Assembly (NCBI GenBank): GCA_964483315.1
Contig: CAZAAL010000001.1
Location: 274,733 to 338,732, forward strand
Source of the DNA: an uncultured Candidatus Saccharibacteria bacterium
Lineage (GTDB): Bacteria > Patescibacteriota > Saccharimonadia > Saccharimonadales > UBA10212
Reading direction: 5' to 3'
DNA length: 64,000 nucleotides
Shown: positions 1,281 through 56,831 of the stretch, one piece after another
Position numbering within the stretch: the stretch's first letter is position 1
Layout of the letters: every line of letters starts with the position of its first letter
Translations under genes and position numbers: made by a program
The notes under the pieces: model-generated
What the model was told of the DNA's origin: nothing
The model's database searches: none
What the model saw: the letters and a program-made list of their open reading frames with translations, nothing else

Positions 1281-3416
1281 TTGGTGCAAGATAAACTTTT
1301 TGAAGGATTAAACTCGGAACAAAAACGGGCGGTAAAAACAACTGAAGGCCCTCTTTTAATTTTGGCTGGCGCCGGTAGCGGCAAAACAAAAACACTTACC
1401 CATAGAATCGCTTATCTTATATCCGAGCATAAGGCTACCCCCTACAACATTCTTGCTGTTACTTTTACTAACAAAGCTGCCCGCGAAATGCGCGAAAGGA
1501 TTGCCGCACTAATTGGTGGCAGCCCAGATGATAGAGCATTTTTGCCATATATGGGCACGTTTCATGGCATATGCGTAAGACTGCTCAGGCAAGATGGCGA
1601 ACATATCGGTGTACCAAAAAATTTTGTAATCTGGGATGAATCAGATAGATTGGCAGCTGTAAAACAAGTTTGCAAGCAACTCTATATTGACGAAAAGGCA
1701 TATCCTCCTAGGGTGCTAACAAGCTTAATCAGCTCAGCTAAAAATGAACTTATTGAACCAAATGAGTATGCCAGTATGGCATCTAGTCCGACTCAAAATA
1801 ATGCCAGTAAAGTTTATCCGTTATATGAGCAGTTATTAAAAGAGGGTGGAGCGCTAGATTTTGACGATTTAATCGCCAAAACTGTTGAGATGCTTGAGAA
1901 ATCCCCCGATTCAAGGTTTAAATGGCAAAATCAATTTAAGTACATAATGATTGACGAATACCAGGACACTAACTCAGCTCAGTATAAACTAGTAAAACTT
2001 TTAGTTGGCGAGCAAAAAAACATTGCTGTTGTAGGCGACGACTGGCAAAGTATTTATTCCTGGCGAGGAGCTGATTTTAAAAATATACTTAACTTTGAAC
2101 GAGATTACCCAGACGCTGTAATTATTAAGCTCGAACAAAACTATCGAAGCACCAAGCATATACTGGATGCTGCCCATGCCGTGATAGCCAAAAACGCTCA
2201 CCGTAGCGATAAAAAGTTGTGGACAAACGATAACAGCGGTTCGCCGGTTCAGGTTCTGGCGGTAAATAACGAACGCGCCGAAGGCGAAGCAATTGTAAGA
2301 CGCGTAAAAACATCAGTTGATATTAGCGCCAGAAAATACAAGGATTTTGCAGTACTTTACCGAACCAACGCACAAAGCCGAGCAGTTGAAGAAGTTTTTG
2401 TGCACTATAACATCCCATACAGAATAGTTGGTGGGGTCAGGTTTTATGATCGAAAAGAAGTCAAAGACATAATGGCCTATCTAAGATTAATCTATCAACC
2501 TGAAGATATTGTCAGCTTTGAAAGAATTGCCAATGTGCCAACCAGAGGGCTTGGTGCCGTATCTTTGCAAAAATTTATGCAGTGGCGAGCTAAGAAGGGC
2601 CTTAGTCAATTAACGGCTCTTGAGTTTGTAAAAGAGTGCGAGGATATTACACCAAAGGCTCGCCATGCTCTATCAGTGTTGGCGGATATTGTGCTAAGTT
2701 ATCGGGCAATGCTCGACGAGCTGACTGTTCAGGCTTTAATCGATTCGCTAATTAGGCGCCTGGACTACCTCAATTATTTAGATGATGGTACGGTGCAAGG
2801 TACAGCACGTCAAGAAAACGTAAAAGAACTCTTGAGCGTGGCTCACGAATATCAAGATTTGGGCCTAGCCGGATTTTTGGAAGAGGTAAGTTTAGTAAGT
2901 GATGTTGATTCGGCCAATTTTAGTGACGATGTGGTAACTTTGATGACTCTTCATTCAGCTAAAGGATTGGAATTCCCGGTGGTATTTATGACTGGGATGG
3001 AAGAGTCAATCATGCCCCACAGTCGTGCGCTTTATGATCAGCACGAAATGGAAGAAGAAAGGCGACTTTGTTATGTCGGAATGACCAGGGCAAAACAGGA
3101 GCTTTATTTAATTCATGCCAACATGCGATCACTATATGGGGGCATGCAACATAATCCTCCAAGTAGATTTATCGCTGATATAGGGGGCGAATCAGTAACA
3201 GAGGGTGTGTCGGCAGATATCTATAACAACCTACAAACACCGATTAGTGACGAACCAAGATATGTGCCAGAACTTTATGAGGGCGACAACATTAACCACC
3301 AGATTTTTGGCACTGGGACAATCCTAGAACTAGACGGTGAAAACGCTGTGATTTATTTTAAAGGCCGGGGCACCAAAAAGATAAACATCGCATTCGCACC
3401 AATCAAAAAAGCCTAA
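1281..3416 (+). CDS. pcrA: ATP-dependent DNA helicase PcrA/UvrD (SF1)
   Basis: TTG start. Walker A is AGAGSGKTKT. Motifs DEYQDTN, VGDDWQSIYSWRGA and QNYRST are present, with a C-terminal Tudor-like tail (IFGTGTILELDGENAVIYF). Confidence 0.93.
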   Translation: MVQDKLFEGLNSEQKRAVKTTEGPLLILAGAGSGKTKTLTHRIAYLISEHKATPYNILAVTFTNKAAREMRERIAALIGGSPDDRAFLPYMGTFHGICVRLLRQDGEHIGVPKNFVIWDESDRLAAVKQVCKQLYIDEKAYPPRVLTSLISSAKNELIEPNEYASMASSPTQNNASKVYPLYEQLLKEGGALDFDDLIAKTVEMLEKSPDSRFKWQNQFKYIMIDEYQDTNSAQYKLVKLLVGEQKNIAVVGDDWQSIYSWRGADFKNILNFERDYPDAVIIKLEQNYRSTKHILDAAHAVIAKNAHRSDKKLWTNDNSGSPVQVLAVNNERAEGEAIVRRVKTSVDISARKYKDFAVLYRTNAQSRAVEEVFVHYNIPYRIVGGVRFYDRKEVKDIMAYLRLIYQPEDIVSFERIANVPTRGLGAVSLQKFMQWRAKKGLSQLTALEFVKECEDITPKARHALSVLADIVLSYRAMLDELTVQALIDSLIRRLDYLNYLDDGTVQGTARQENVKELLSVAHEYQDLGLAGFLEEVSLVSDVDSANFSDDVVTLMTLHSAKGLEFPVVFMTGMEESIMPHSRALYDQHEMEEERRLCYVGMTRAKQELYLIHANMRSLYGGMQHNPPSRFIADIGGESVTEGVSADIYNNLQTPISDEPRYVPELYEGDNINHQIFGTGTILELDGENAVIYFKGRGTKKINIAFAPIKKA

Positions 3417-3445: not shown

Positions 3446-3481
3446 ACTACATAATTGGTACATATGTACCAATTATGTAGT
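3446..3481. repeat. palindrome A (perfect; CTACATAATTGGTACATATGTACCAATTATGTAG core)
   Basis: Read directly. The 34-bp core 3447-3480 is its own reverse complement, and one further A:T pair extends it. It lies 30 nt after the pcrA stop. Confidence 0.95.
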
Positions 3482-3510: not shown

Positions 3511-3544
3511 CTACATAAAAATAACATATGTACCAATTATGTAG
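3511..3544. repeat. palindrome B (chimeric arms: left CTACATAAAAATAACAT, right ATGTACCAATTATGTAG)
   Basis: The outer 8 bp and inner ACATATGT are palindromic and the central N5 differs between arms. The left arm equals the copy F arm and the right arm equals the copy A arm. Its centre is 64 bp from the centre of A. Confidence 0.9.
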
Positions 3545-3631: not shown

Positions 3632-4099
3632 ATGATTAAGCAGGCTAGGGCGATAATTTCAAAATCAATTTACTATATTGGACTGCCAGTTGTTTATCTA
3701 GAATTTAAAGACTCAACTAGGGCATATCTGCTGTTAGAGGCATCTGGGCAGGTACTATTTGTTAAAAGTTGGTTTGGCAATCAAAAGTACAAATTGCCGG
3801 GCGGTGGCCTAAAAAAGGGTGAAGACCCAAAAAATGGCGTAGTCCGCGAAGTAAATGAAGAAACAGGCCTTTCAATTGACCCTAGCCAACTAAATTTAAT
3901 ACTAGATTTACAACAAAGTCATGCAGGGGCAAATTATCGTCACTTGGTTTATAAACTAAAACTTGAAGAGCAAAAATGGCCCAAACCAGCAAAGTTCGAA
4001 ATAATGGAGGCAGTTTGGTTGAGTCCAAGCATTATAAATCTGTCCAATTCAAATCAAGCGACAATTAAAGCACTCAAGACCGCCGGACTTGTTAGCTAA
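3632..4099 (+). CDS. NUDIX hydrolase
   Basis: Complete Nudix box GGLKKGEDPKNGVVREVNEETGL (GX5EX7REUXEEXGU). Confidence 0.85.
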   Translation: MIKQARAIISKSIYYIGLPVVYLEFKDSTRAYLLLEASGQVLFVKSWFGNQKYKLPGGGLKKGEDPKNGVVREVNEETGLSIDPSQLNLILDLQQSHAGANYRHLVYKLKLEEQKWPKPAKFEIMEAVWLSPSIINLSNSNQATIKALKTAGLVS

Positions 4100-5431: not shown

Positions 5432-6007
5432 ATGAATCTTCAGTGCGTCAGATGCAGTAAATCATTCGAAAGACCGCTAAAAGACGTCAACAGAGGAAGA
5501 GTTAAGTATTGTAGTAGAGTTTGCTCGGATGAGCATAAAAAAGAAAAAGCGCTAATATATGCCAAAAAAGTTATACAAAACGACAAAAAACAATGTAAAG
5601 CTTGTGATGCAACAAAACCATTATCAAGTTTCCCTAAATCAAAAGATAGCTACACGGGTTATTTTTCTTATTGCATTGAATGCAGAAGAGACTTAAATCG
5701 AGCACAAGACAAAAAGAGATGGTCAGAAAAAAAAGAGAAACTGATTGCTCAAAGAAGAAATGCACATTTACGTCGGGAGTTTGGAATCACAACTGAACAC
5801 TATGAGCAACTACTAAACACGCAAAAAGGTGTTTGCGCAATTTGCAAAGAAAGCAAACAGTATAAACTTTTAGCTGTTGATCATGACCATACAACTGGGA
5901 TAATAAGAGGCATTCTTTGCGAAAACTGTAATCGAGCTTTAGGAATGTTTAAGGACGATGAAAACAGATTGCAAAACGCGATAGAGTACCTAAAAGCAAA
6001 TGGATAA
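5432..6007 (+). CDS. recombination endonuclease VII-family (HNH-type) nuclease with N-terminal CxxC zinc-ribbon motifs
   Basis: CAICKESK...LAVDHDHTTGIIRGILCENCNRALGMF is the Endonuclease_7 signature. Upstream CxxC pairs are present. It overlaps the rsmA start by 8 nt. Confidence 0.8.
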   Translation: MNLQCVRCSKSFERPLKDVNRGRVKYCSRVCSDEHKKEKALIYAKKVIQNDKKQCKACDATKPLSSFPKSKDSYTGYFSYCIECRRDLNRAQDKKRWSEKKEKLIAQRRNAHLRREFGITTEHYEQLLNTQKGVCAICKESKQYKLLAVDHDHTTGIIRGILCENCNRALGMFKDDENRLQNAIEYLKANG

Positions 6008-6788
6008 CTTACCCAAAAAATCTTTAGGTCAGCATTGGCTAGTTGACGAACATGCCTTAAAGGAGATTTGCGACAGTGCTAATCTAAGCCAAACTGATAC
6101 TGTACTTGAAATTGGTCCAGGGCAAGGCGCACTTACAAAGTATCTAGTTAAAGAAGTCAAACAAGTTATTGCAGTTGAGTTTGATCTTGAATTGGCTAAA
6201 AACTTAAAATCCAGAATTAATTCTAACAACCTTACTATTATCAATATGGATATTCTTAAATTTGATTTTTCAAGCCTGCCAACAGGCTATAAATTAGTTG
6301 CCAATATACCTTACTATCTGACTAGCCATTTGTTCAGAGGTATAAGTGAATCAACTAATCCGCCATCCAGTGCAGTAATTTTGGTCCAAAAAGAGGTAGC
6401 CGAACGTATATGCGCCGGTCCTGGCCAAATGAGCATACTAAGCGTGAGTGTTCAGATGTATTTTGAAGCTAGTTTGGGACTAACTGTTCCTGCCAGTTCT
6501 TTTGAGCCTAAACCAAAAGTAGATTCACAAGTAGTTAAGCTTCACAGACTTAAAAAACCGCTATTTGAAAGTATCAACCAAAAACAATTTTTTAGAATTG
6601 TTAAAGCCGGTTTTTCAGCAAAACGTAAAAAATTACGATCAAGTTTAAGCGGTGGGCTTGGCATCGAAAAAACTCAAACCGAACAGTTACTATCTACTGC
6701 AAAAATTGATCCTAACTTGCGTGCACAAAATCTTAGTTTGCAAGATTGGCATAAGATATATGTCGCTTATGCTAAAATCTGGAATTAG
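6000..6788 (+). CDS. rsmA: 16S rRNA (adenine1518/1519-N6)-dimethyltransferase
   Basis: LGQHWL, SAM motif EIGPGQGALT and ANIPYYLTS. Confidence 0.92.
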   Translation: MDNLPKKSLGQHWLVDEHALKEICDSANLSQTDTVLEIGPGQGALTKYLVKEVKQVIAVEFDLELAKNLKSRINSNNLTIINMDILKFDFSSLPTGYKLVANIPYYLTSHLFRGISESTNPPSSAVILVQKEVAERICAGPGQMSILSVSVQMYFEASLGLTVPASSFEPKPKVDSQVVKLHRLKKPLFESINQKQFFRIVKAGFSAKRKKLRSSLSGGLGIEKTQTEQLLSTAKIDPNLRAQNLSLQDWHKIYVAYAKIWN

Positions 6789-12480: not shown

Positions 12481-12874
12481 GGGGCTGAATTTAAGCTCGA
12501 CGAATGGACTTTAACAATCTTGATGGCAGGTCGGGTCGCACTGAACGTTATCCGGTGCACAGGCTATAAATGCCAAAAATAGTTTAAGCGACATGGTTGA
12601 TCGAGTTTTCGCTCAACGTGGCGCTCTAGCTGTAGCCTAATTATTTAAGCTACCATCGACTGGCTGACGTCAGATAGGACTCAGTCGGTGTTATATTTAT
12701 CTGACTGCTCTAAGCTGTGGTAGACCGCCGTAGCATAGTTAAGATTATTGGACTGCACCCTATCCTGTTTTGATCGTTTATAGGGGCAGGGCTAAGCAAT
12801 TTAAACGATACAAACCTGTAGTCATCAAGCGTGTTACCAATCGGACGTGGGGGCAGTACCCACCAGCTCCACCA
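12481..12874 (+). ncRNA. ssrA: tmRNA (SsrA)
   Basis: 5' GGGGCTGA. The 3' tRNA-like end is GGACGTGGGGGCAGTACCCACCAGCTCCACCA. An internal tag ORF at 12572-12640 encodes AKNSLSDMVDRVFAQRGALAVA* (typical ...ALAVA end). A TATAAT box lies at 12465-12470. Confidence 0.87.
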
Positions 12875-12924: not shown

Positions 12925-13995
12925 GTGTTAAAAAAATATTTTGAGGTTTATTGGTGGGTTTTGCCAGTGGTATTTATAACCGGTAGTATTTTAGCTTCTG
13001 CCACAATAATCAAACAAAGCCAAGACACCAAGACTACATACGAATTTGTTGAGTGCACTGGTCAGCAGTCCGCTGACTTTAAATGCTGGAAGAGCCGTTA
13101 TGAAGCTTTGGTTATGAATAAATCACCCGAAGAAGCTCTAGCAAGCGCCGAGCAAGAAAGTAATAAGGGCGGATATGTTCGAACAAATTGCCACCAAATA
13201 GCCCATGTTATAGGCAGACAATCTGCTAAAAAATACAGCCTGAACCTAACAACAACGTTTGAGCATGGTAACAAATTTTGCGCATCTGGCTACTATCACG
13301 GAGCAATGGAGTCAATCACAGCAAACGTTGGACCAGACAAAATTAGGGCTGAAATTTCAGACATTTGTAAACCGTTAAGGGATAAAAACCCCTATAACCT
13401 TGTCCATTACGATTGTGCGCATGGCCTTGGACACGGTGTAATGTCGATGGAAAATTATGATCTATTTAAAGCACTTGAAGATTGCGAAAAAATGGCAGAT
13501 ATGTGGGAAAGCGAATCGTGTAGCACCGGGGTGTTTATGGAAAACATTATGAGTATCGTAAATAACCCTGATTATAAAACAAAATATTTAAGATCAGACG
13601 AGCCTATGTATCCATGTACGGCTGTTAATGACAGACAAAAAAGCCCATGCTATATAAATCAAACTTCGTACGCTTTAACAGCAGTTGGCGGAAGCTATGA
13701 AAAGGTTTTTGAGCTATGTAGCCAAGCTGGCAATTTTGAATCGACATGTTATCAAAGTTTGGGGCGGGACGCATCGGGCAACACTATTCAAAACCCTGAT
13801 CAGGCGAACCAGATTTGCCAAAAAGGCGTCAATAACGAACAGGTCGTAAATTGTGTGATTGGTGCTGTTAAAGATATTGTGTGGATTGGCAACAGTAAGC
13901 CAAATGGCTTAGTATTTTGTGCTTTACAAAACGAAGTTAGCATCGAACAAACTTGCAACGAAACGGTAGAGGCTTATTATGCGAGCTTTAACTAA
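12925..13995 (+). CDS. hypothetical Cys/His-rich membrane-anchored protein
   Basis: GTG start 7 nt after a TGgTATAAT box. N-terminal TM helix. Recurrent C-x2-3-G-x2-HG-like motifs (CHQIAHVIG, CASGYYHGAM, CAHGLGHGVM, CSTGVFM). Confidence 0.6.
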   Translation: MLKKYFEVYWWVLPVVFITGSILASATIIKQSQDTKTTYEFVECTGQQSADFKCWKSRYEALVMNKSPEEALASAEQESNKGGYVRTNCHQIAHVIGRQSAKKYSLNLTTTFEHGNKFCASGYYHGAMESITANVGPDKIRAEISDICKPLRDKNPYNLVHYDCAHGLGHGVMSMENYDLFKALEDCEKMADMWESESCSTGVFMENIMSIVNNPDYKTKYLRSDEPMYPCTAVNDRQKSPCYINQTSYALTAVGGSYEKVFELCSQAGNFESTCYQSLGRDASGNTIQNPDQANQICQKGVNNEQVVNCVIGAVKDIVWIGNSKPNGLVFCALQNEVSIEQTCNETVEAYYASFN

Positions 13996-29457: not shown

Positions 29458-30810
29458 ATGAATCCACTTAATATCAATTTTAAGTCTGCGCACCGACTGA
29501 AAACGGTACCGATAGCTTTTGCGGCTCTGACGCTTTCGCTATCAACTGTATTGCCGTTGCTAGCCCCCGGCTCTGCTGATGCAGCTACTATGACGAATCG
29601 TAATGTCGTCATATCGTCATCAGAAGCTAGCCAAACCGGTACTGACTATCAATTCAACTTTACCTTCCCGTCTACTACTGCGGCTCAGAGCATTCGCTTT
29701 GAATTTTGTACAAACCCACTTGGTTCTTGTACTAAGCCAACTGGTATGGACATTAACTACACACTTACAACATTAAGTGCTACCCAAACATTTTCTGAAG
29801 CCACACTGTTCACAGAATATACTGGTGCGGACGCTGGTGCTTGTGACGATCACAATAACGGTACTCCAGCTAACTCTACTGAATACTGTGTTACTCGTAC
29901 CGATACCGATTCTGAAACAGCTGCTGCCAAGCAAATTACTATTCAGAACGTTACTAATCCATCTACTGAAGCTTCATTCTATGTACGTATCTCAGTATAT
30001 AGTGATACCGCTTTTGCCACTGAAGTTCACAGTGGTACCGTAGCTGGTGCAGTTGTTAGCCAACTAACCGTAACTGGTCGTGTCCAAGAGCGCCTACAGT
30101 TCTGTGTAGCAGCTATTGGTGACGGCGGTGCTACCGACACAACTCTACCTTCAGACGTCCCGACTTGTATCGCCCTATCCGAAACAACTGTTGACATCGG
30201 TGTAATCGATAGCTCATCTACCCCGAGCATGGCTCCAGTTGACAACACCACATCACTACTAGGTGACGACGAGTACGGTATAGCTATGATTAACACCAAC
30301 GCTGGTACCAGCACAACTCTAACCTTCTTTGCTGAAGATCCAACCGCCGTATCTGGTGGTGATACTCACCAACTTAAGTCCTTCCGTGTAGTACCAACCG
30401 ACTGTGACGCAGTATCTTCAACCGCTACTGACCAATGTTTCCAATCAGCCGCTAACGGTGGTGCAGGTACCACAATTACATCTGGCACAGAATGGTTTGG
30501 AATGTACGTACCATGTGTTGACACTACTCAAGGTGCAGTCTCAACACCAATGACCGTTGACGCCGATTTTAACGGCTTTGACAACGACACTGCTGATGAC
30601 GCTGACTGTGAAAACGACGACAAATCTGACAACGGTGGCTTACCAAACATTGGTTGGAACACAAGTACAACCGCTACAGACATAGCCTCACGCTCAGGAG
30701 TTATTGACGACGCTATAGTCAAACTATCCTTTGTAGGTCAAGCTGCTGCTACTACACCAACCGGTACATATACAGTTGTTACTACCTACATTGCTACTCC
30801 ATCGTTCTAA
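29458..30810 (+). CDS. secreted fibre-subunit-like protein P2 (tandem duplicate 1)
   Basis: AGGAGA RBS. Signal peptide ..PGSADA|ATMTNR. Motifs SIRFEFCTNPLGSC and LQFCV...VDIGVIDSSST. C-terminal strand TGTYTVVTTYIATPSF*. Confidence 0.72.
   Translation: MNPLNINFKSAHRLKTVPIAFAALTLSLSTVLPLLAPGSADAATMTNRNVVISSSEASQTGTDYQFNFTFPSTTAAQSIRFEFCTNPLGSCTKPTGMDINYTLTTLSATQTFSEATLFTEYTGADAGACDDHNNGTPANSTEYCVTRTDTDSETAAAKQITIQNVTNPSTEASFYVRISVYSDTAFATEVHSGTVAGAVVSQLTVTGRVQERLQFCVAAIGDGGATDTTLPSDVPTCIALSETTVDIGVIDSSSTPSMAPVDNTTSLLGDDEYGIAMINTNAGTSTTLTFFAEDPTAVSGGDTHQLKSFRVVPTDCDAVSSTATDQCFQSAANGGAGTTITSGTEWFGMYVPCVDTTQGAVSTPMTVDADFNGFDNDTADDADCENDDKSDNGGLPNIGWNTSTTATDIASRSGVIDDAIVKLSFVGQAAATTPTGTYTVVTTYIATPSF
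29644..30810 (+). repeat. 1167-bp direct repeat, copy 1 (identical to 31226-32392)
   Basis: Offset of 1582 bp. Several lines were spot-checked base by base. The translated ORFs and all shadow ORFs in the track are identical. Identity starts abruptly at 29644 and ends at the stop codon. Confidence 0.9.
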
Positions 30811-31057: not shown

Positions 31058-32392
31058 ATGCAATATTTTAAATATCAACTTAAATACGCTAGGGTATTAG
31101 CATTATCTTTAGTCCTTGGCTTAGCAACCGTTTTGCCGATATTGGTCCCCGGCTCTGCTAGTGCAGAGACTATGACGAATAGAAGCGTACTTATCTCAAC
31201 CTCCAGGGCTTCCGCCACGGCAGTAGACTATCAATTCAACTTTACCTTCCCGTCTACTACTGCGGCTCAGAGCATTCGCTTTGAATTTTGTACAAACCCA
31301 CTTGGTTCTTGTACTAAGCCAACTGGTATGGACATTAACTACACACTTACAACATTAAGTGCTACCCAAACATTTTCTGAAGCCACACTGTTCACAGAAT
31401 ATACTGGTGCGGACGCTGGTGCTTGTGACGATCACAATAACGGTACTCCAGCTAACTCTACTGAATACTGTGTTACTCGTACCGATACCGATTCTGAAAC
31501 AGCTGCTGCCAAGCAAATTACTATTCAGAACGTTACTAATCCATCTACTGAAGCTTCATTCTATGTACGTATCTCAGTATATAGTGATACCGCTTTTGCC
31601 ACTGAAGTTCACAGTGGTACCGTAGCTGGTGCAGTTGTTAGCCAACTAACCGTAACTGGTCGTGTCCAAGAGCGCCTACAGTTCTGTGTAGCAGCTATTG
31701 GTGACGGCGGTGCTACCGACACAACTCTACCTTCAGACGTCCCGACTTGTATCGCCCTATCCGAAACAACTGTTGACATCGGTGTAATCGATAGCTCATC
31801 TACCCCGAGCATGGCTCCAGTTGACAACACCACATCACTACTAGGTGACGACGAGTACGGTATAGCTATGATTAACACCAACGCTGGTACCAGCACAACT
31901 CTAACCTTCTTTGCTGAAGATCCAACCGCCGTATCTGGTGGTGATACTCACCAACTTAAGTCCTTCCGTGTAGTACCAACCGACTGTGACGCAGTATCTT
32001 CAACCGCTACTGACCAATGTTTCCAATCAGCCGCTAACGGTGGTGCAGGTACCACAATTACATCTGGCACAGAATGGTTTGGAATGTACGTACCATGTGT
32101 TGACACTACTCAAGGTGCAGTCTCAACACCAATGACCGTTGACGCCGATTTTAACGGCTTTGACAACGACACTGCTGATGACGCTGACTGTGAAAACGAC
32201 GACAAATCTGACAACGGTGGCTTACCAAACATTGGTTGGAACACAAGTACAACCGCTACAGACATAGCCTCACGCTCAGGAGTTATTGACGACGCTATAG
32301 TCAAACTATCCTTTGTAGGTCAAGCTGCTGCTACTACACCAACCGGTACATATACAGTTGTTACTACCTACATTGCTACTCCATCGTTCTAA
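31058..32392 (+). CDS. secreted fibre-subunit-like protein P3 (tandem duplicate 2)
   Basis: AAGGAA RBS. Signal peptide ..PGSASA|ETMTNR. From residue DYQFNF to the stop it is identical to P2. Confidence 0.72.
   Translation: MQYFKYQLKYARVLALSLVLGLATVLPILVPGSASAETMTNRSVLISTSRASATAVDYQFNFTFPSTTAAQSIRFEFCTNPLGSCTKPTGMDINYTLTTLSATQTFSEATLFTEYTGADAGACDDHNNGTPANSTEYCVTRTDTDSETAAAKQITIQNVTNPSTEASFYVRISVYSDTAFATEVHSGTVAGAVVSQLTVTGRVQERLQFCVAAIGDGGATDTTLPSDVPTCIALSETTVDIGVIDSSSTPSMAPVDNTTSLLGDDEYGIAMINTNAGTSTTLTFFAEDPTAVSGGDTHQLKSFRVVPTDCDAVSSTATDQCFQSAANGGAGTTITSGTEWFGMYVPCVDTTQGAVSTPMTVDADFNGFDNDTADDADCENDDKSDNGGLPNIGWNTSTTATDIASRSGVIDDAIVKLSFVGQAAATTPTGTYTVVTTYIATPSF
31226..32392 (+). repeat. 1167-bp direct repeat, copy 2
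   Basis: See copy 1. Confidence 0.9.
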
Positions 32393-46475: not shown

Positions 46476-46477
46476 TA

Positions 46478-46509
46478 TACATAATTACTACATATGTTAT
46501 TTTTATGTA
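46478..46509. repeat. palindrome C (chimeric; inverted near-copy of B, 31/34 identical)
   Basis: TACATAATTACTACATATGTTATTTTTATGTA. It starts 3 nt after the obg stop. Its centre is 65 bp from the centre of D. Confidence 0.9.
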
Positions 46510-46541
46510 GATCAAAACAGAATCAATTAGCGTCTTTTAAT

Positions 46542-46575
46542 CTACATAATTTTAACATATGTTAAAATTATGTAG
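46542..46575. repeat. palindrome D (perfect; CTACATAATTTTAACATATGTTAAAATTATGTAG)
   Basis: It is its own reverse complement. It ends on the base before the ATG at 46576. Confidence 0.95.
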
Positions 46576-47121
46576 ATGAGCACCAAGGATGGAATTAATA
46601 CAAGTCTTAAAATTATAGGAGCATTTGGGTTTGCGGGCATTGTGGTTGTTGCGCCAAATGCCGTACAAGCCTTGAATTTAATTACCAAAAAAAATAAAAA
46701 GAGTTTTGATAAAAGCCGAGTAATGACCGAGTTAAAACGACAAGGCTTGGTAATGGTAACTAGCGATGGTAAAAAAACTAAGCTTACTCTAACTCCAGCT
46801 GGAGCACATCGTTTACAAAAGTTATCAATCGATGAATTAAAAATACCAAAACCCAAAAAATGGGATAACAAATGGCGAATGGTGTCGTTTGACATTCCAG
46901 TTAGCGAAAGTAAAACAAGATCGTACTTTACTGCTCAGTTAAGAACCCTTGGGCTCGTTATGTTGCAAAAAAGCATGTGGGTGCACCCTTATGAATGCTT
47001 TAGACAAGTTTCTAAAACAGCAGATTATTATAATGTAAGACGTTATTGTAGTTTTTTTGAACTATCTAGTATTGATGAAAAAAATCTGTCAAAGCTCAAA
47101 AAGCATTTTAACTTAAAGTAA
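46576..47121 (+). CDS. PaaX-like / Cas2-fold-like putative DNA-binding regulator
   Basis: KKWDNKWRMVSFDIPVSESKTRSYFTAQLRTLGLVMLQKSMWVHP matches the W.g.W..v.fdiPe..r..R......L...Gf..lq.svwv.P pattern of PaaX-type proteins. The preceding wHTH-like region is VMTELKRQGLV. Bracketed by palindromes C, D and E. Confidence 0.58.
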   Translation: MSTKDGINTSLKIIGAFGFAGIVVVAPNAVQALNLITKKNKKSFDKSRVMTELKRQGLVMVTSDGKKTKLTLTPAGAHRLQKLSIDELKIPKPKKWDNKWRMVSFDIPVSESKTRSYFTAQLRTLGLVMLQKSMWVHPYECFRQVSKTADYYNVRRYCSFFELSSIDEKNLSKLKKHFNLK

Positions 47122-47162
47122 CTTATACATAATTGGTACATATGTACCAATTATGTATAAGT
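47121..47162. repeat. palindrome E (perfect 42 bp; A-type core with extended arms)
   Basis: ACTTATACATAATTGGTACATATGTACCAATTATGTATAAGT is its own reverse complement. It overlaps the last base of the stop codon. Confidence 0.95.
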
Positions 47163-47194
47163 TACGATGGTGGGTGGCTTAAGAATAAAATAAA

Positions 47195-50959: not shown

Positions 50960-52390
50960 ATGAGTCAAACCTTTTACTTTTATGATTTAGAAACTAGTGG
51001 TGTCAATGCACGAACTAGTCGAATAATGCAATTTGCTGGTCAGCGTACAAATATGGACTTACAGCCGATTGGTGAGCCAGATAATTATTTGATTAAACTC
51101 AGCAGTGATATTTTACCCGATCCGGAAGCAGTCTTAATAACCGGGATTACTCCGCAACAAACCCTGCAGGATGGACTTACAGAAGTAGAATTTTTGAAAA
51201 TATTCTACAAAGACATAGCCAAGCCAGACACAATTTTTACCGGTTTTAACAGCGTTAGGTTTGATGACGAATTTATACGATACTTAAACTATCGTAACTA
51301 CTATGATGCATACGAATGGCAGTGGCAGGAGGGTAAAACCAAATGGGATATGCTTGATGTAAGTCGTATGACAAGAGCTCTAAGACCAGATGGCATTAAA
51401 TGGCCGTTTGATAAAGATGGGCTCCCAACAAATCGACTGGAGCTATTAACCAAAGTCAATAAAATCGAACATTCATCGGCTCATGACGCTCTGCATGATG
51501 TATTCGCCACTATTGAACTAGCAAAACTTATAAAATCCAAACAACCAAAACTGTTTGATTATCTATTAAAAATTCGAACCAAAAACGAAGCATCAAAGTT
51601 GGTTGAATCTGGTAACCCCTTTATATATACTAGCGGGCGTTATAGCTCAGAAAATTTAAAAACTACAATTGCCGTAAAATTAACAGAAGCTGAAGGTAAA
51701 CAAGGGGTGCTAGTTTATGACTTAAGGCAAGACCCAAAACCATACCTTAAATTAAATATTAATGACTTAGCGGAGCGTTTTTATGTGCCAAGGGATTCCG
51801 ACTTAGGCCAACTGCCAGTAAAAGTTTTGCAGTACAACCGTTGTCCAGCAATTGCGCCAATATCGACGCTTGATAAAGATTCTCAAGCCAGATTAAAACT
51901 GGACATTAAGCAAGTGCAAAAAAACTTACAAACGCTCATATCTAATCCCGATTTTAGCGATAGATTACACGAGGCTTACCTAAACTTTTCTAAAAAAGAT
52001 AATTCGTCCAATGATTTGAATATGTTAAATGTTGATGAAAAGCTATATGACGGATTTTTTGATGACAGCGATAAAACAAAAATGCGTGTTGTTCGCGCGG
52101 CCGACAAAGAACAGTTGGCAGACCTAAACCTAGATTTTGCTGATGAGCGCCTAGGTTTGTTGTTGCCATTGTATAAAGCTAGGAACTTTCCAAAAAGCTT
52201 GAATCAAGACGAGCAAAATTTATGGCAACAGTTTTGCAAAAACAAGTTACTTGGCGATCGGCCAAGCCAGTTTGAAGTTTACTTTACAAAACTCGAAGAG
52301 ATAGCAAATCGAACTAACCTTACAGAGCAACAACGCTATTTGGTCCAAGAGCTTAATCTTTACGGAGAATCAATTCTACCTACCGACTAA
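50960..52390 (+). CDS. sbcB: exodeoxyribonuclease I
   Basis: FYFYDLETSGVN (DxE), ..FNSVRFDDEF.. and SAHDALHDV (DEDDh). Size matches ExoI. Confidence 0.88.
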   Translation: MSQTFYFYDLETSGVNARTSRIMQFAGQRTNMDLQPIGEPDNYLIKLSSDILPDPEAVLITGITPQQTLQDGLTEVEFLKIFYKDIAKPDTIFTGFNSVRFDDEFIRYLNYRNYYDAYEWQWQEGKTKWDMLDVSRMTRALRPDGIKWPFDKDGLPTNRLELLTKVNKIEHSSAHDALHDVFATIELAKLIKSKQPKLFDYLLKIRTKNEASKLVESGNPFIYTSGRYSSENLKTTIAVKLTEAEGKQGVLVYDLRQDPKPYLKLNINDLAERFYVPRDSDLGQLPVKVLQYNRCPAIAPISTLDKDSQARLKLDIKQVQKNLQTLISNPDFSDRLHEAYLNFSKKDNSSNDLNMLNVDEKLYDGFFDDSDKTKMRVVRAADKEQLADLNLDFADERLGLLLPLYKARNFPKSLNQDEQNLWQQFCKNKLLGDRPSQFEVYFTKLEEIANRTNLTEQQRYLVQELNLYGESILPTD

Positions 52391-52392
52391 GA

Positions 52393-52426
52393 ATACATAA
52401 AAATAACATATGTTATTTTTATGTAT
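52393..52426. repeat. palindrome F (perfect; ATACATAAAAATAACATATGTTATTTTTATGTAT)
   Basis: It is its own reverse complement. It lies exactly between the convergent stops at 52390 and 52429. Confidence 0.95.
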
Positions 52427-52428
52427 AT

Positions 52429-52671
52429 CTAGATTGTCAATAAATCAATTTCGATCTGTTTGTTGATCTTTGATCTATTTGTATGTATCAGATTTATAAG
52501 CACACGCCGGCTTTTGTATAGGACTATGGCCAGTAGCCATAACAGAATCACCGACCAAAAGTCGAGCGTTAATTCGGTGCCAGGGATTTGGCCTAATACT
52601 AAAAACTCCATCATTATCTTTTTATCCGTTGATTTAAAGCAAAATATACACCCAAGTTGCATATAAATCAA
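52429..52671 (-). CDS. small hypothetical membrane protein
   Basis: One or two TM helices (LDFWSVILLWLLAIVLY). The true start may be the internal MMEF (about 52614). Confidence 0.4.
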   Translation of the reverse strand: MIYMQLGCIFCFKSTDKKIMMEFLVLGQIPGTELTLDFWSVILLWLLAIVLYKSRRVLINLIHTNRSKINKQIEIDLLTI

Positions 52672-52691: not shown

Positions 52692-53297
52692 TTATATGAG
52701 TTTTTCAAACAGCTTGTAGGCTGTTGCACCGAGTGTAAGGATTAGGGTGATGCCGATTGCGCCAACAACTATGCCGATAATTGTTAGTAATATGTCCTCT
52801 AAAATAATCGATAAGCAAATTATCACAACCCCAAGAGCTGGCAGTGTATCCAGGCCTGAAAACGGCGGTGAAAAAAATGCAGCCAAACAAAAAAGTACTA
52901 TTACCAACCCAAGTAATCTTAAAAACTGCCGATTAACTACTGTGCTTGATAAACGTGGGCGAGAAAATTTTTCAAAAAATCTTATTAGCTTTATTAGTGG
53001 GATTAATGCCTTTTGCTGAAAGTTACCACCAATTTCAAGTGATTCCCAGCGTTTGGGTATCCATAGTTTTTTAAGCCCAATAATCATTCCGATCGCTATA
53101 CTTATGGCAATCGCTTCGAAAATATGGGATACGCCACCAGTTGGTATAGGCAAGGCCGGCAAGGCCATCAAAAGAAAAATAGCGATAGCAAAAGATTTTT
53201 CGGCAAAAACCTCTTCAAGGTCGCGTACCGTTTTTCGGCCATCAGATTTAAGCCAGTCTGTTAACTCTTGGCTAAAATCTTTCGGTTGTTTCATCAT
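52692..53297 (-). CDS. ExoD-family membrane protein
   Basis: The N-terminal region, then FAIAIFLLMALPALPIPTGGVSHIFEAIAI, and 4 TM helices resemble the exopolysaccharide synthesis ExoD family. Confidence 0.65.
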   Translation of the reverse strand: MMKQPKDFSQELTDWLKSDGRKTVRDLEEVFAEKSFAIAIFLLMALPALPIPTGGVSHIFEAIAISIAIGMIIGLKKLWIPKRWESLEIGGNFQQKALIPLIKLIRFFEKFSRPRLSSTVVNRQFLRLLGLVIVLFCLAAFFSPPFSGLDTLPALGVVIICLSIILEDILLTIIGIVVGAIGITLILTLGATAYKLFEKLI

Positions 53298-56179: not shown

Positions 56180-56211
56180 TACAAAATCTTAACATATGTT
56201 AAGATTTTGTA
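56180..56211. repeat. palindrome G (perfect; TACAAAATCTTAACATATGTTAAGATTTTGTA)
   Basis: It is its own reverse complement. It starts 1 nt after the uvrA stop. It contains the stop codon and the last 3-4 codons of the convergent dedA gene. Confidence 0.95.
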
Positions 56212-56831
56212 GATCGTCTAAATAACTTATCTTTTAATAGCTTTCTTGATCTGGGATCTTTTAGGGCATGAATTAGTGTAAATCCAAAAGTGGCCAATAC
56301 CGCAATAACAATCGTTAACTCAATATATTTATCTAAACTGGGGATTTTTGATCCCAAGAAGTAGCCAGCCAGTGTAACACTGCCAGCCCATAAAAATGCG
56401 CCCAAAACGTTATATATAAAGTAGGCGCGTTTATCCATTTGACCCACACCAGCCATTACACTCACAAAGGTTCTTACTATGGGCACAAATCTGGCAAGCA
56501 AAATTGTTTTATTGCCATGCTTTTTAAAGAACGACTCTGTCTTATCAACGTATTCTTTTCTAAAAAATATGCCGTCGTTTTTGGTAAAAACTTTTGGGCC
56601 ACCTTTTTCGCCAATAATATACCCAATTTGGTACCCAATAATCGTCGATGCGATTATAGTGCCCAAAAGACCAAATAGTGGTAACTTGCCTTGTCCAGCA
56701 AAAAACCCTGCGGTAAATAACAAACTATCACCCGGTAGCAAAAAACCAATCAACAGTCCGCTCTCGGCAAATATAATTATTCCAACCAATAACAAACCAC
56801 CAACTTCCAGGATGTGCTCAATGTTAAACAT
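56199..56831 (-). CDS. dedA: DedA-family (VTT domain) membrane protein
   Basis: GLLIGFLLPGDSLLFTAGFFAG and ..ARFVPIVRTFVSVMAG... Confidence 0.85.
   Translation of the reverse strand: MFNIEHILEVGGLLLVGIIIFAESGLLIGFLLPGDSLLFTAGFFAGQGKLPLFGLLGTIIASTIIGYQIGYIIGEKGGPKVFTKNDGIFFRKEYVDKTESFFKKHGNKTILLARFVPIVRTFVSVMAGVGQMDKRAYFIYNVLGAFLWAGSVTLAGYFLGSKIPSLDKYIELTIVIAVLATFGFTLIHALKDPRSRKLLKDKLFRRSTKS

Follow-up and report, generated by a model that had tools for sequence, protein, structure and literature searches.

A small PaaX-like protein of Candidate Phyla Radiation bacteria and the lineage-specific palindromes predicted to be its operators

Why would a small regulator-like gene be bracketed by long palindromes, one of which reaches its start codon, in a bacterium of the Candidate Phyla Radiation (CPR, or Patescibacteria), whose members have tiny genomes and few recognisable regulators? 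The question is raised by a 64,000-nucleotide stretch of a contig from an uncultured Candidatus Saccharibacteria bacterium (CAZAAL010000001.1, positions 274,733 to 338,732; hereafter the window), in which an open reading frame (ORF) on the plus strand (46576-47121) encodes a 181-aa protein that we call mini-PaaX. To our knowledge no operator has been experimentally defined for CPR bacteria. We consider it likely that mini-PaaX is an effector-less dimer under its own repression, with a predicted operator that overlaps the gene's leaderless promoter, as in Escherichia coli PaaX.

The initial annotation of the window had placed two palindromes (C and D) before the gene and one (E) directly after it, and the coordinates confirmed this arrangement. 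Palindrome C (46478-46509) begins 3 nt past the stop codon of obg and is imperfect, with 12 of 16 pairs formed. Palindrome D, the proximal upstream copy and the predicted operator, has a 32-bp core (46543-46574) that stops 1 nt before the ATG, while its extended form (46540-46577) is a perfect 38-bp palindrome whose 19-nt arms take in the A and the T of that ATG, so D does abut the start codon as had been claimed. Palindrome E, the post-stop copy, proved longer than the 42 bp originally given: it is a perfect palindrome of 48 bp (47118-47165; core 47126-47157) with 24-nt arms that are 100% complementary, and it starts within the last sense codon of the gene and overlaps its TAA stop. The sites follow the pattern TACAnAA-N5-ACATATGT-N5-TTnTGTA, of which the window holds seven copies (A-G), each with 0 mismatches, against an expectation of 0.00 in shuffled sequence. 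These copies account for seven of the window's eight ACATATGT octamers, and 4.3 kb of sequence beyond the window held no further copy.

Is the pairing of gene and palindromes peculiar to this genome? The 27 homologues of the window protein, all from Saccharibacteria, together with their loci indicated otherwise, since the same architecture was seen at loci L001, L003, L006, L008, L018, L016, L019 and L017. At L001 (54% identity) two palindromes stand before the gene and two after it; at L008, L003, L006 and L018 a gap of 0-1 nt separates the proximal palindrome from the ATG, and L008 also carries a post-stop copy. The sequence of the palindrome changes with the protein: clade 1, to which the window belongs, has TACA..ACATATGT..TGTA; clade 2 (L016 and L019, 44% identical to the window protein) has TACCAT-N6-GCAATTGC-N6-ATGGTA both upstream and downstream; and clade 3 (L017, 39% identical) has TCACAT-N6-GCACGTGC-N6-ATGTGA, again on both sides. 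Thus three different sequences share an identical length of 32 bp and an identical layout.

When metagenome contigs were scanned with the family alignment, 80 more loci at 29-55% identity were obtained, and after removal of near-duplicates the comparative set comprised 75 genes from Saccharibacteria to Parcubacteria (29-58% identity). With a detector set at 11 or more of 16 pairs, a 32-bp palindrome was found just upstream of the gene in 59 of the 72 assessable loci and just past the stop codon in 54 of 73, and the loci missed mostly carry slightly imperfect versions at the same position. The background of this detector was 16 of 198 random windows; a stricter one (at least 9 of 10 outer and central pairs) found 0.07 palindromes per kb in the 405 kb outside the gene flanks. 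When palindromy was not assumed, the best 32-mer common to the upstream and downstream flanks of a locus still matched at a median of 26 of 32 positions, compared with 19 of 32 for shuffled pairs of loci. C14 and G19 are invariant in all lineages, and the site centre is CATATG in 93 of 113 sites (CAATTG, CCATGG or CACGTG in the rest). On the other hand, the arm positions (1-8, 13, 20 and 25-32) are identical at frequencies of 0.81-0.94 within a locus but only 0.26-0.51 between loci, and at a protein identity of about 50% the arms are altogether different. The 32-bp layout with its CATATG centre is therefore common across CPR and the post-stop copy is a family-wide trait, while the arms belong to the lineage. 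Such lineage-specific co-variation on both flanks of the gene is our main argument that the palindrome is the cognate element of the mini-PaaX protein, a conclusion that comparison of sequences supports.

The neighbourhoods of these genes were also compared. Each locus has a single mini-PaaX gene; Saccharibacteria keep it in synteny with obg, exoI and uvrA, clade 2 with rplA and thioredoxin. The exonuclease I gene exoI (sbcB-type; 50960-52390 in the window) neighbours mini-PaaX in 17 Saccharibacterial loci (L001, L006, L022, L024, L029, L030, L032, L034-L039, L042-L044 and L058), in convergent, divergent or co-directional orientation. In the L017 lineage the gene sits within the hrcA-grpE-dnaK cluster, and CIRCE-like elements (TTAGCACTC...) lie at 6590-6620 and 6760-6770 between mini-PaaX and dnaK.

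Could the palindromes instead be independent of the protein, as bidirectional hairpin terminators, generic symmetric promoters or the sites of another factor, so that their adjacency to the gene is incidental? We regard this as very improbable. Five of the seven window copies do begin 1-32 nt past a stop codon, the perfect copies could fold stably (predicted hairpins of -11 to -19 kcal/mol), and canonical terminators are not enriched in the region (14 found, 12.7 expected), which leaves room for another type of terminator to be in use. However, a sequence that tracks the protein lineage on both flanks over ~75 loci is unexpected of an unrelated factor or a generic terminator, and no other occurrence of the motif was found in the 11-20 kb of the clade-2 and clade-3 loci. 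A role as RNA hairpin or terminator was rejected on three grounds: i) no T-run follows the hairpins of the window palindromes; ii) G:T mismatches are no commoner than A:C within the sites, so the G:U wobble signature of an RNA hairpin is missing; iii) the hairpins of B and C are weak (-3.6 and -3.4 kcal/mol) though both copies keep all consensus bases, so that the sequence, and not the hairpin, is what the copies have in common.

Two further identities were also rejected. The centre AACATATGTT resembles the Gram-positive SOS box, and LexA-based SOS work on Patescibacteria reportedly exists, but no GAAC-N4-GTTC box occurs in the window and the motif tracks the mini-PaaX protein. An analogy with replication termini (replication terminator protein, RTP, and Ter sites) finds no turn in the cumulative GC skew, which climbs across the whole window.

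What does the upstream copy contribute to expression of the gene? The right half of D contains an extended -10 element, TGtTAAAAT (46560-46568, plus strand), whose TAAAAT (46563-46568) lies 7 nt before the ATG, as the initial annotation had noticed; in a promoter consensus scan TG precedes it and TCTACA sits 16 nt upstream. Because D is symmetric, promoter elements are detected on both strands. The distance of 7 nt from -10 to ATG implies a leaderless mRNA. The comparison distinguishes the two halves of the site: TANNNT stands in the -10 register in 34 of 59 gene-proximal halves of upstream sites, against 18 of 59 on the opposite strand and half and 13 of 54 downstream sites, and the exact register TGnTANNNT was found in 31 of the 59 upstream sites. 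Moreover, positions 21-23 hold 0.6-0.9 bit of information in upstream sites and 0.2-0.4 bit in downstream ones, and 24 of the 59 upstream palindromes lie 0-4 nt from the start codon. This -10 asymmetry and the short gap argue that the upstream copy combines a symmetric site with a promoter, and that the transcript would start at or beside the ATG. Comparison thus favours the suggestion made at the outset, that the palindrome carries the gene's promoter at leaderless geometry.

It had also been pointed out that D leaves no room for a Shine-Dalgarno sequence. This is true and speaks for the leaderless reading, though it does not set the gene apart, since such a motif precedes only 14 of 50 window genes. 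TATAAT, often with TG before it, lies 7-11 nt upstream of many starts (uvrA and the genes at 12925, 14403, 19243, 20446, 37394, 39372, 53366 and 59487), and leaderless or near-leaderless mRNAs seem to be the norm in this Saccharibacterium.

What kind of protein would read such a site? Profile hidden Markov models and fold agree with the family assigned initially. The window protein matches Pfam PaaX_M (PF20803) over residues 94-169 (E 6.1e-19; 68.3 bits, cut-off 24), as do all 27 homologues but one fragment, and no match to the Pfam PaaX_N or Peptidase_S24 models was obtained. The PaaX equivalog model TIGR02277 scored 31.3 bits, far under its cut-off of 264.55, over model positions 41-160 of 279. 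The PaaX signature quoted in the initial annotation was right in outline; the string reads W96-x3-W100-R-M-V-S-F-D-I-P ... Q-K-S-M-W-V-H-P. The invariant residues are W96, D97, W100, R101, D106, R115, S133, W135, P138 and C141, and the N-terminus MSTKDGIN or MTTRDGIN is kept across the 27 homologues, which identifies the ATG at 46576 as the true start codon.

An AlphaFold2 model built from the 27 homologues (predicted local distance difference test score of 93) comprises a winged helix (aa 3-86) followed by a Cas2-like, ferredoxin-like domain (aa 100-177). Its top Foldseek match was E. coli PaaX (8A39; E 5e-5, 178 columns, both domains aligned), followed by Rv0674 and 3L09 and then by Cas2 chains and assorted winged-helix proteins; at the level of sequence, weak alignments with MarR and ArsR chains were obtained. 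A membrane anchor or transmembrane helix in the hydrophobic N-terminus was ruled out, because the model and the MarR and ArsR alignments assign this segment to helix 1 and strand 1 of the winged helix. As modelled, the protein is a truncated PaaX with the DNA-binding and dimerisation domains and without the C-terminal effector domain (PaaX_C), and thus has no evident ligand site.

The Cas2-like domain raises the question of whether the locus is a degenerate or minimal CRISPR-Cas remnant, that is, a Cas2 gene beside the palindromic repeat pairs A-B and C-D. We give this almost no credence. The relatives P0051, P0083 and P0122 in Parcubacteria (e.g. Candidatus Yanofskybacteria) are labelled "CRISPR-associated endonuclease Cas2" in NCBI records, the fold resembles Cas2, and the two pairs look like CRISPR units, with 32-bp repeats and 32-33-bp spacers. 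Yet the Cas2 model TIGR01573 matched only residues 101-137 and at 20.6 bits stayed below its threshold of 24.5, the protein begins with a winged helix, and its best full-length match is PaaX. The window contains no arrays (cas1 was not searched for explicitly), the palindromes stand alone or in pairs, tandem copies being 32-57 nt apart in other genomes, the two "repeats" of a pair are unlike each other, and as a rule a single copy stands to either side of the gene. The three Parcubacterial relatives themselves carry a winged helix and PaaX_M, and their label is probably a systematic misannotation. PaaX and Cas2 were not mentioned together in the literature searched, nor was PaaX in the top-ranked CPR literature.

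How, then, would protein and palindrome work together? A dimer, or possibly a pair of dimers, would bind the 32-38-bp palindrome with its CATATG centre, A/T tracts and lineage-specific outer octamers. Plausibly, the Cas2-like dimer would lie along the centre, leaving the arms to be read by the winged helices or by their wings. The site itself consists of 6-8 specific bp, about 16-20 bp between, and 6-8 specific bp, a spread-out inverted repeat like that of E. coli PaaX. D would span the gene's own promoter, with the TG of CATATG and the next TAnnnT serving as extended -10 and the ATG following 6-7 nt on, so that occupation of D would exclude RNA polymerase and the gene would repress itself. 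CATATG may thereby have a triple role, as part of the extended -10, as a flexible CA/TA/TG centre and as a protein contact. E would either cooperate with the promoter copy through a ~600-bp loop or act as a barrier where the gene ends, whether bound by protein or folded into a hairpin. In this lineage the palindrome has reached a few other intergenic sites as well, of which at least that between pcrA and the NUDIX hydrolase gene is conserved and perhaps a genuine target.

Several observations weigh against self-repression as the whole explanation: i) the presumed recognition helix (WRKFYxSLxYLNRRGY) is near-constant among Parcubacteria-type members with unrelated arms; ii) in most lineages no copy lies within 5-20 kb besides the two that flank the gene, which leaves the regulator without obvious output; iii) the post-stop copy, which in most loci begins -9 to +30 nt from the stop, is followed by a convergent gene in 22 of 37 loci, and a copy between convergent genes is not the operator of a neighbouring promoter; iv) perfect 16/16 palindromes make up ~40% of sites (22 of 59 upstream and 23 of 54 downstream); and v) compensatory differences between the two copies of a locus account for 52 of 176 differing pairs. 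Residues of the recognition helix were accordingly discarded as the source of arm specificity, since the helix barely varies between members with different arms, and no tandem paralogues that could have driven divergence of specificity were found in 90 loci. Neither the perfect sites nor the compensatory changes are predicted if a dimer simply reads bases; they point to selection on self-complementarity or a mutational drive towards it. The symmetry could be kept because a DNA cruciform or hairpin has a function, or through correction of quasipalindromes by template switching.

A rival reading is a selfish element of the repetitive extragenic palindromic (REP) kind, in which the palindromes would serve primarily to form DNA structures. 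Gene and flanking palindromes would then be an autonomous unit able to maintain, homogenise, invert or spread its palindromes, similar to a REPtron without HUH transposase, and the cognate Cas2-fold protein would recognise DNA structure (a cruciform or hairpin) together with a CATATG loop. We hold such an element to be unlikely, with more in its favour than incidental adjacency has. Apart from the compensatory differences, which preserve the self-complementarity of each copy, and the many perfect sites, it draws on the flanking copies being often 100% identical: in six of the 48 loci that have both, upstream and downstream copies agree at 32 of 32 positions (e.g. L082, L061, L096, L070 and L059). 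Copies have spread to post-stop or convergent positions in this lineage (F and G in the window; L010 and L013), and dispersed copies are mostly unconserved between genomes. B and C are half-site mosaics, as if recombined at the centre, and in the slot from obg to exoI the cassette has one orientation in the window and the other on the P0002 contig. Yet neither a HxH motif nor a catalytic Tyr is among the invariant residues, no Y1_Tnp match was obtained with Pfam, and the protein has no recombinase domain and no recombinase gene nearby. A target-site duplication was not found, each locus has its single gene in synteny that is conserved within clades, and in most lineages 5-20 kb of sequence contain no copies but the two flanking ones. 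Furthermore, B and C hold the consensus without a hairpin, and the -10 asymmetry indicates that the upstream copy functions as a promoter.

The same evidence gives no support to an earlier suggestion that the ~690-bp unit of palindrome, gene and palindrome is a small mobile cassette, as it lacks a target-site duplication and a recombinase and occurs once per locus among housekeeping neighbours in conserved synteny. A transposon, insertion sequence or miniature inverted-repeat transposable element was likewise rejected, abutting direct repeats being no commoner than chance.

Does the self-repressing regulator that we favour control other genes as well? The four window copies away from the gene lie at three places. 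Palindromes A (3448-3479) and B (3512-3543, 64 nt after A) stand between pcrA/uvrD (1281-3416) and a NUDIX hydrolase gene (3632-4099, plus strand; Pfam NUDIX, E 4e-14), which is the best candidate target besides the regulator's own gene. Palindrome F (52394-52425) begins 4 nt after the exoI stop. An apparently unannotated 80-aa minus-strand ORF with a hydrophobic core (52429-52671) lies between F and an ExoD-family gene (52692-53297), and this ORF places F between convergent 3' ends. Palindrome G (56180-56211) begins 1 nt after the uvrA stop and reaches into the 3' end of a VTT/DedA-family gene on the minus strand (56199-56831), which is convergent. The inner arm is not the same in A/E, D, F and G, but every one of these copies is a perfect palindrome, and the core of A is identical to that of E. 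Copies B and C appear to have arisen by recombination between copies at the CATATG centre: B joins an F-type left half to an A/E-type right half, and C joins a unique left half to an F-type right half.

The initial annotation had taken the other copies to form the protein's regulon. This holds up only in part, and best for the junction of pcrA and NUDIX, which is conserved in two relatives. Copy B is retained in L102, a relative with 95% identity, and at L101, where NUDIX is 63% identical and stands in synteny with pcrA, there is one TACA..GCATATGC..TGTA site, which stops 10 nt short of the NUDIX ATG and contains the only CATATG in 7.8 kb. The TACA arms of that site (5962-5991) stand 12 nt and not 13 nt from CATATG, so that it measures 30 bp and not 32 bp. 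As the sole non-self site with evidence of conservation, the junction may be a genuine target. The claim fares less well elsewhere, as F and G lie at convergent gene ends, an F-type copy after exoI recurs at L001 (8178-8209) and at none of the other exoI-bearing loci, and G has no counterpart at L001, a locus that carries six palindrome copies in 20 kb.

The exact clade-1 pattern is rare: a search of 185,579 species genomes returned 13 stretches, of which seven are labelled Saccharibacteria, three of these beside a mini-PaaX gene. The other Saccharibacterial matches lie after recX, between an HhH-GPD glycosylase gene and MazG, and between ruvC and ruvA (L010 414-445; L013 6106-6137; L014 2162-2193). 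Together with pcrA-NUDIX, exoI and uvrA, these are junctions of repair, recombination or nucleotide-sanitising genes: across four genomes, six of about eight Saccharibacterial non-self sites adjoin repair genes, and about half lie between convergent 3' ends. We regard the association of dispersed copies with DNA-repair genes as a lead from few sites.

A wider possibility, which we think doubtful, is that the palindromes and their protein are a CPR-wide autonomous DNA element, in which a Cas2-fold dimer measures a palindrome of the size of a CRISPR repeat, possibly as a cruciform, and copies are kept symmetric and identical, flipped, or seeded locally; in Saccharibacteria the palindromes would have been recruited to the 5' and 3' borders of repair and nucleotide-sanitising genes. 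The compensatory symmetry, the identical paired copies, the mosaic half-sites and the repair genes beside most non-self sites are the reasons for proposing it. If true, the element would be a non-HUH analogue of REP/RAYT and would be related, as a free-living form, to the Cas2 module that binds palindromic repeats.

Two observations elsewhere in the window concern other genes. The transfer-messenger RNA gene (12481-12874, plus strand; Rfam RF00023, 78 bits) is the sole Rfam family at gathering threshold in the window, in which no tRNA genes were found. Adjacent paralogous genes at 29458-30810 and 31058-32392 (plus strand) encode proteins of about 450 aa each, and a 21-nt tandem unit (TTGTACAAACCCAACTGGTTC) and an antisense 95-aa ORF are common to both.

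Self-repression of mini-PaaX from D, the reading that we prefer, would provide a testable regulator-operator pair for bacteria whose gene regulation is largely obscure. For this family, which is widespread in CPR bacteria and whose annotation varies between hypothetical, PaaX and Cas2, a cognate DNA element, a promoter and a start site can now be predicted, and correction of the recurrent Cas2 label would remove a source of inflated CRISPR counts in CPR genomes. Because the arms differ between lineages, dozens of protein/operator pairs are on offer, a specificity series that could reveal how PaaX-type dimers read long palindromes and could furnish orthogonal repressor/operator parts. The post-stop copy and the maintained self-symmetry go beyond textbook autoregulation, and the repair-gene association in Saccharibacteria could indicate an unrecognised stress regulon.

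How does this arrangement compare with known systems? Mini-PaaX shares with Cas2 the ferredoxin-like fold and the strand-helix pattern hhhhFDI...R...L...G...Q.S.W, and differs in the fusion to a winged helix and in having no CRISPR array in the window; the genes adjacent to it are obg and a 509-aa gene without Pfam match. Small dimeric helix-turn-helix proteins with symmetric upstream sites of ~30-35 bp and autoregulation include Bacillus subtilis RTP with its Ter sites and the controller (C) proteins of restriction-modification systems with their C-boxes; transcripts of C proteins are leaderless, and RTP has further sites dispersed nearby. Both differ from mini-PaaX in fold and partners, and no restriction-modification genes adjoin mini-PaaX.

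The REP/RAYT (TnpA-REP) system is likewise a gene flanked by its own cognate extragenic palindromes, which co-vary with the protein lineage and in some genomes are dispersed past stops and between convergent genes. Unlike REP/RAYT, mini-PaaX has no HUH/Tyr fold or motifs, usually two copies, conserved synteny, and an upstream copy that is a promoter. Repressors of the MarR, PadR and ArsR types also use a winged helix and a palindromic operator over the -10 and transcription start of their own gene, but their operators span 16-20 bp, they dimerise via helices, and their motifs are usually stable among orthologues.

The closest likeness is to PaaX, the phenylacetyl-CoA-responsive repressor of the paa catabolon (E. 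coli W, 8A39), which also consists of a winged helix followed by a Cas2-like dimerisation domain and has a wide inverted repeat at its own promoter, a feature that for mini-PaaX is known from sequence comparison. In E. coli this repressor occupies TGATTC-N27-GAATCA and shuts down Px, the promoter of its own gene, by sterically excluding RNA polymerase (PMC9493321). Mini-PaaX differs in its 181 aa without PaaX_C, its score far under the equivalog cut-off (31 against 265 bits) and its neighbours, which besides the two adjacent genes include an ABC transporter, exoI and uvrA; no recurrent paa-type neighbours occur in ~70 loci. It differs also in its 32-38-bp site with a near-invariant CATATG centre and lineage-specific arms, in the second site past the stop codon, and in its restriction to CPR. 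Thus the mechanism proposed here, by analogy an autorepressed PaaX-type winged-helix dimer, would already be known, and what is new is an effector-less PaaX form found CPR-wide, predicted operators with which the gene brackets itself, a fast turnover of arms around a fixed CATATG, and a perfect symmetry that is maintained.

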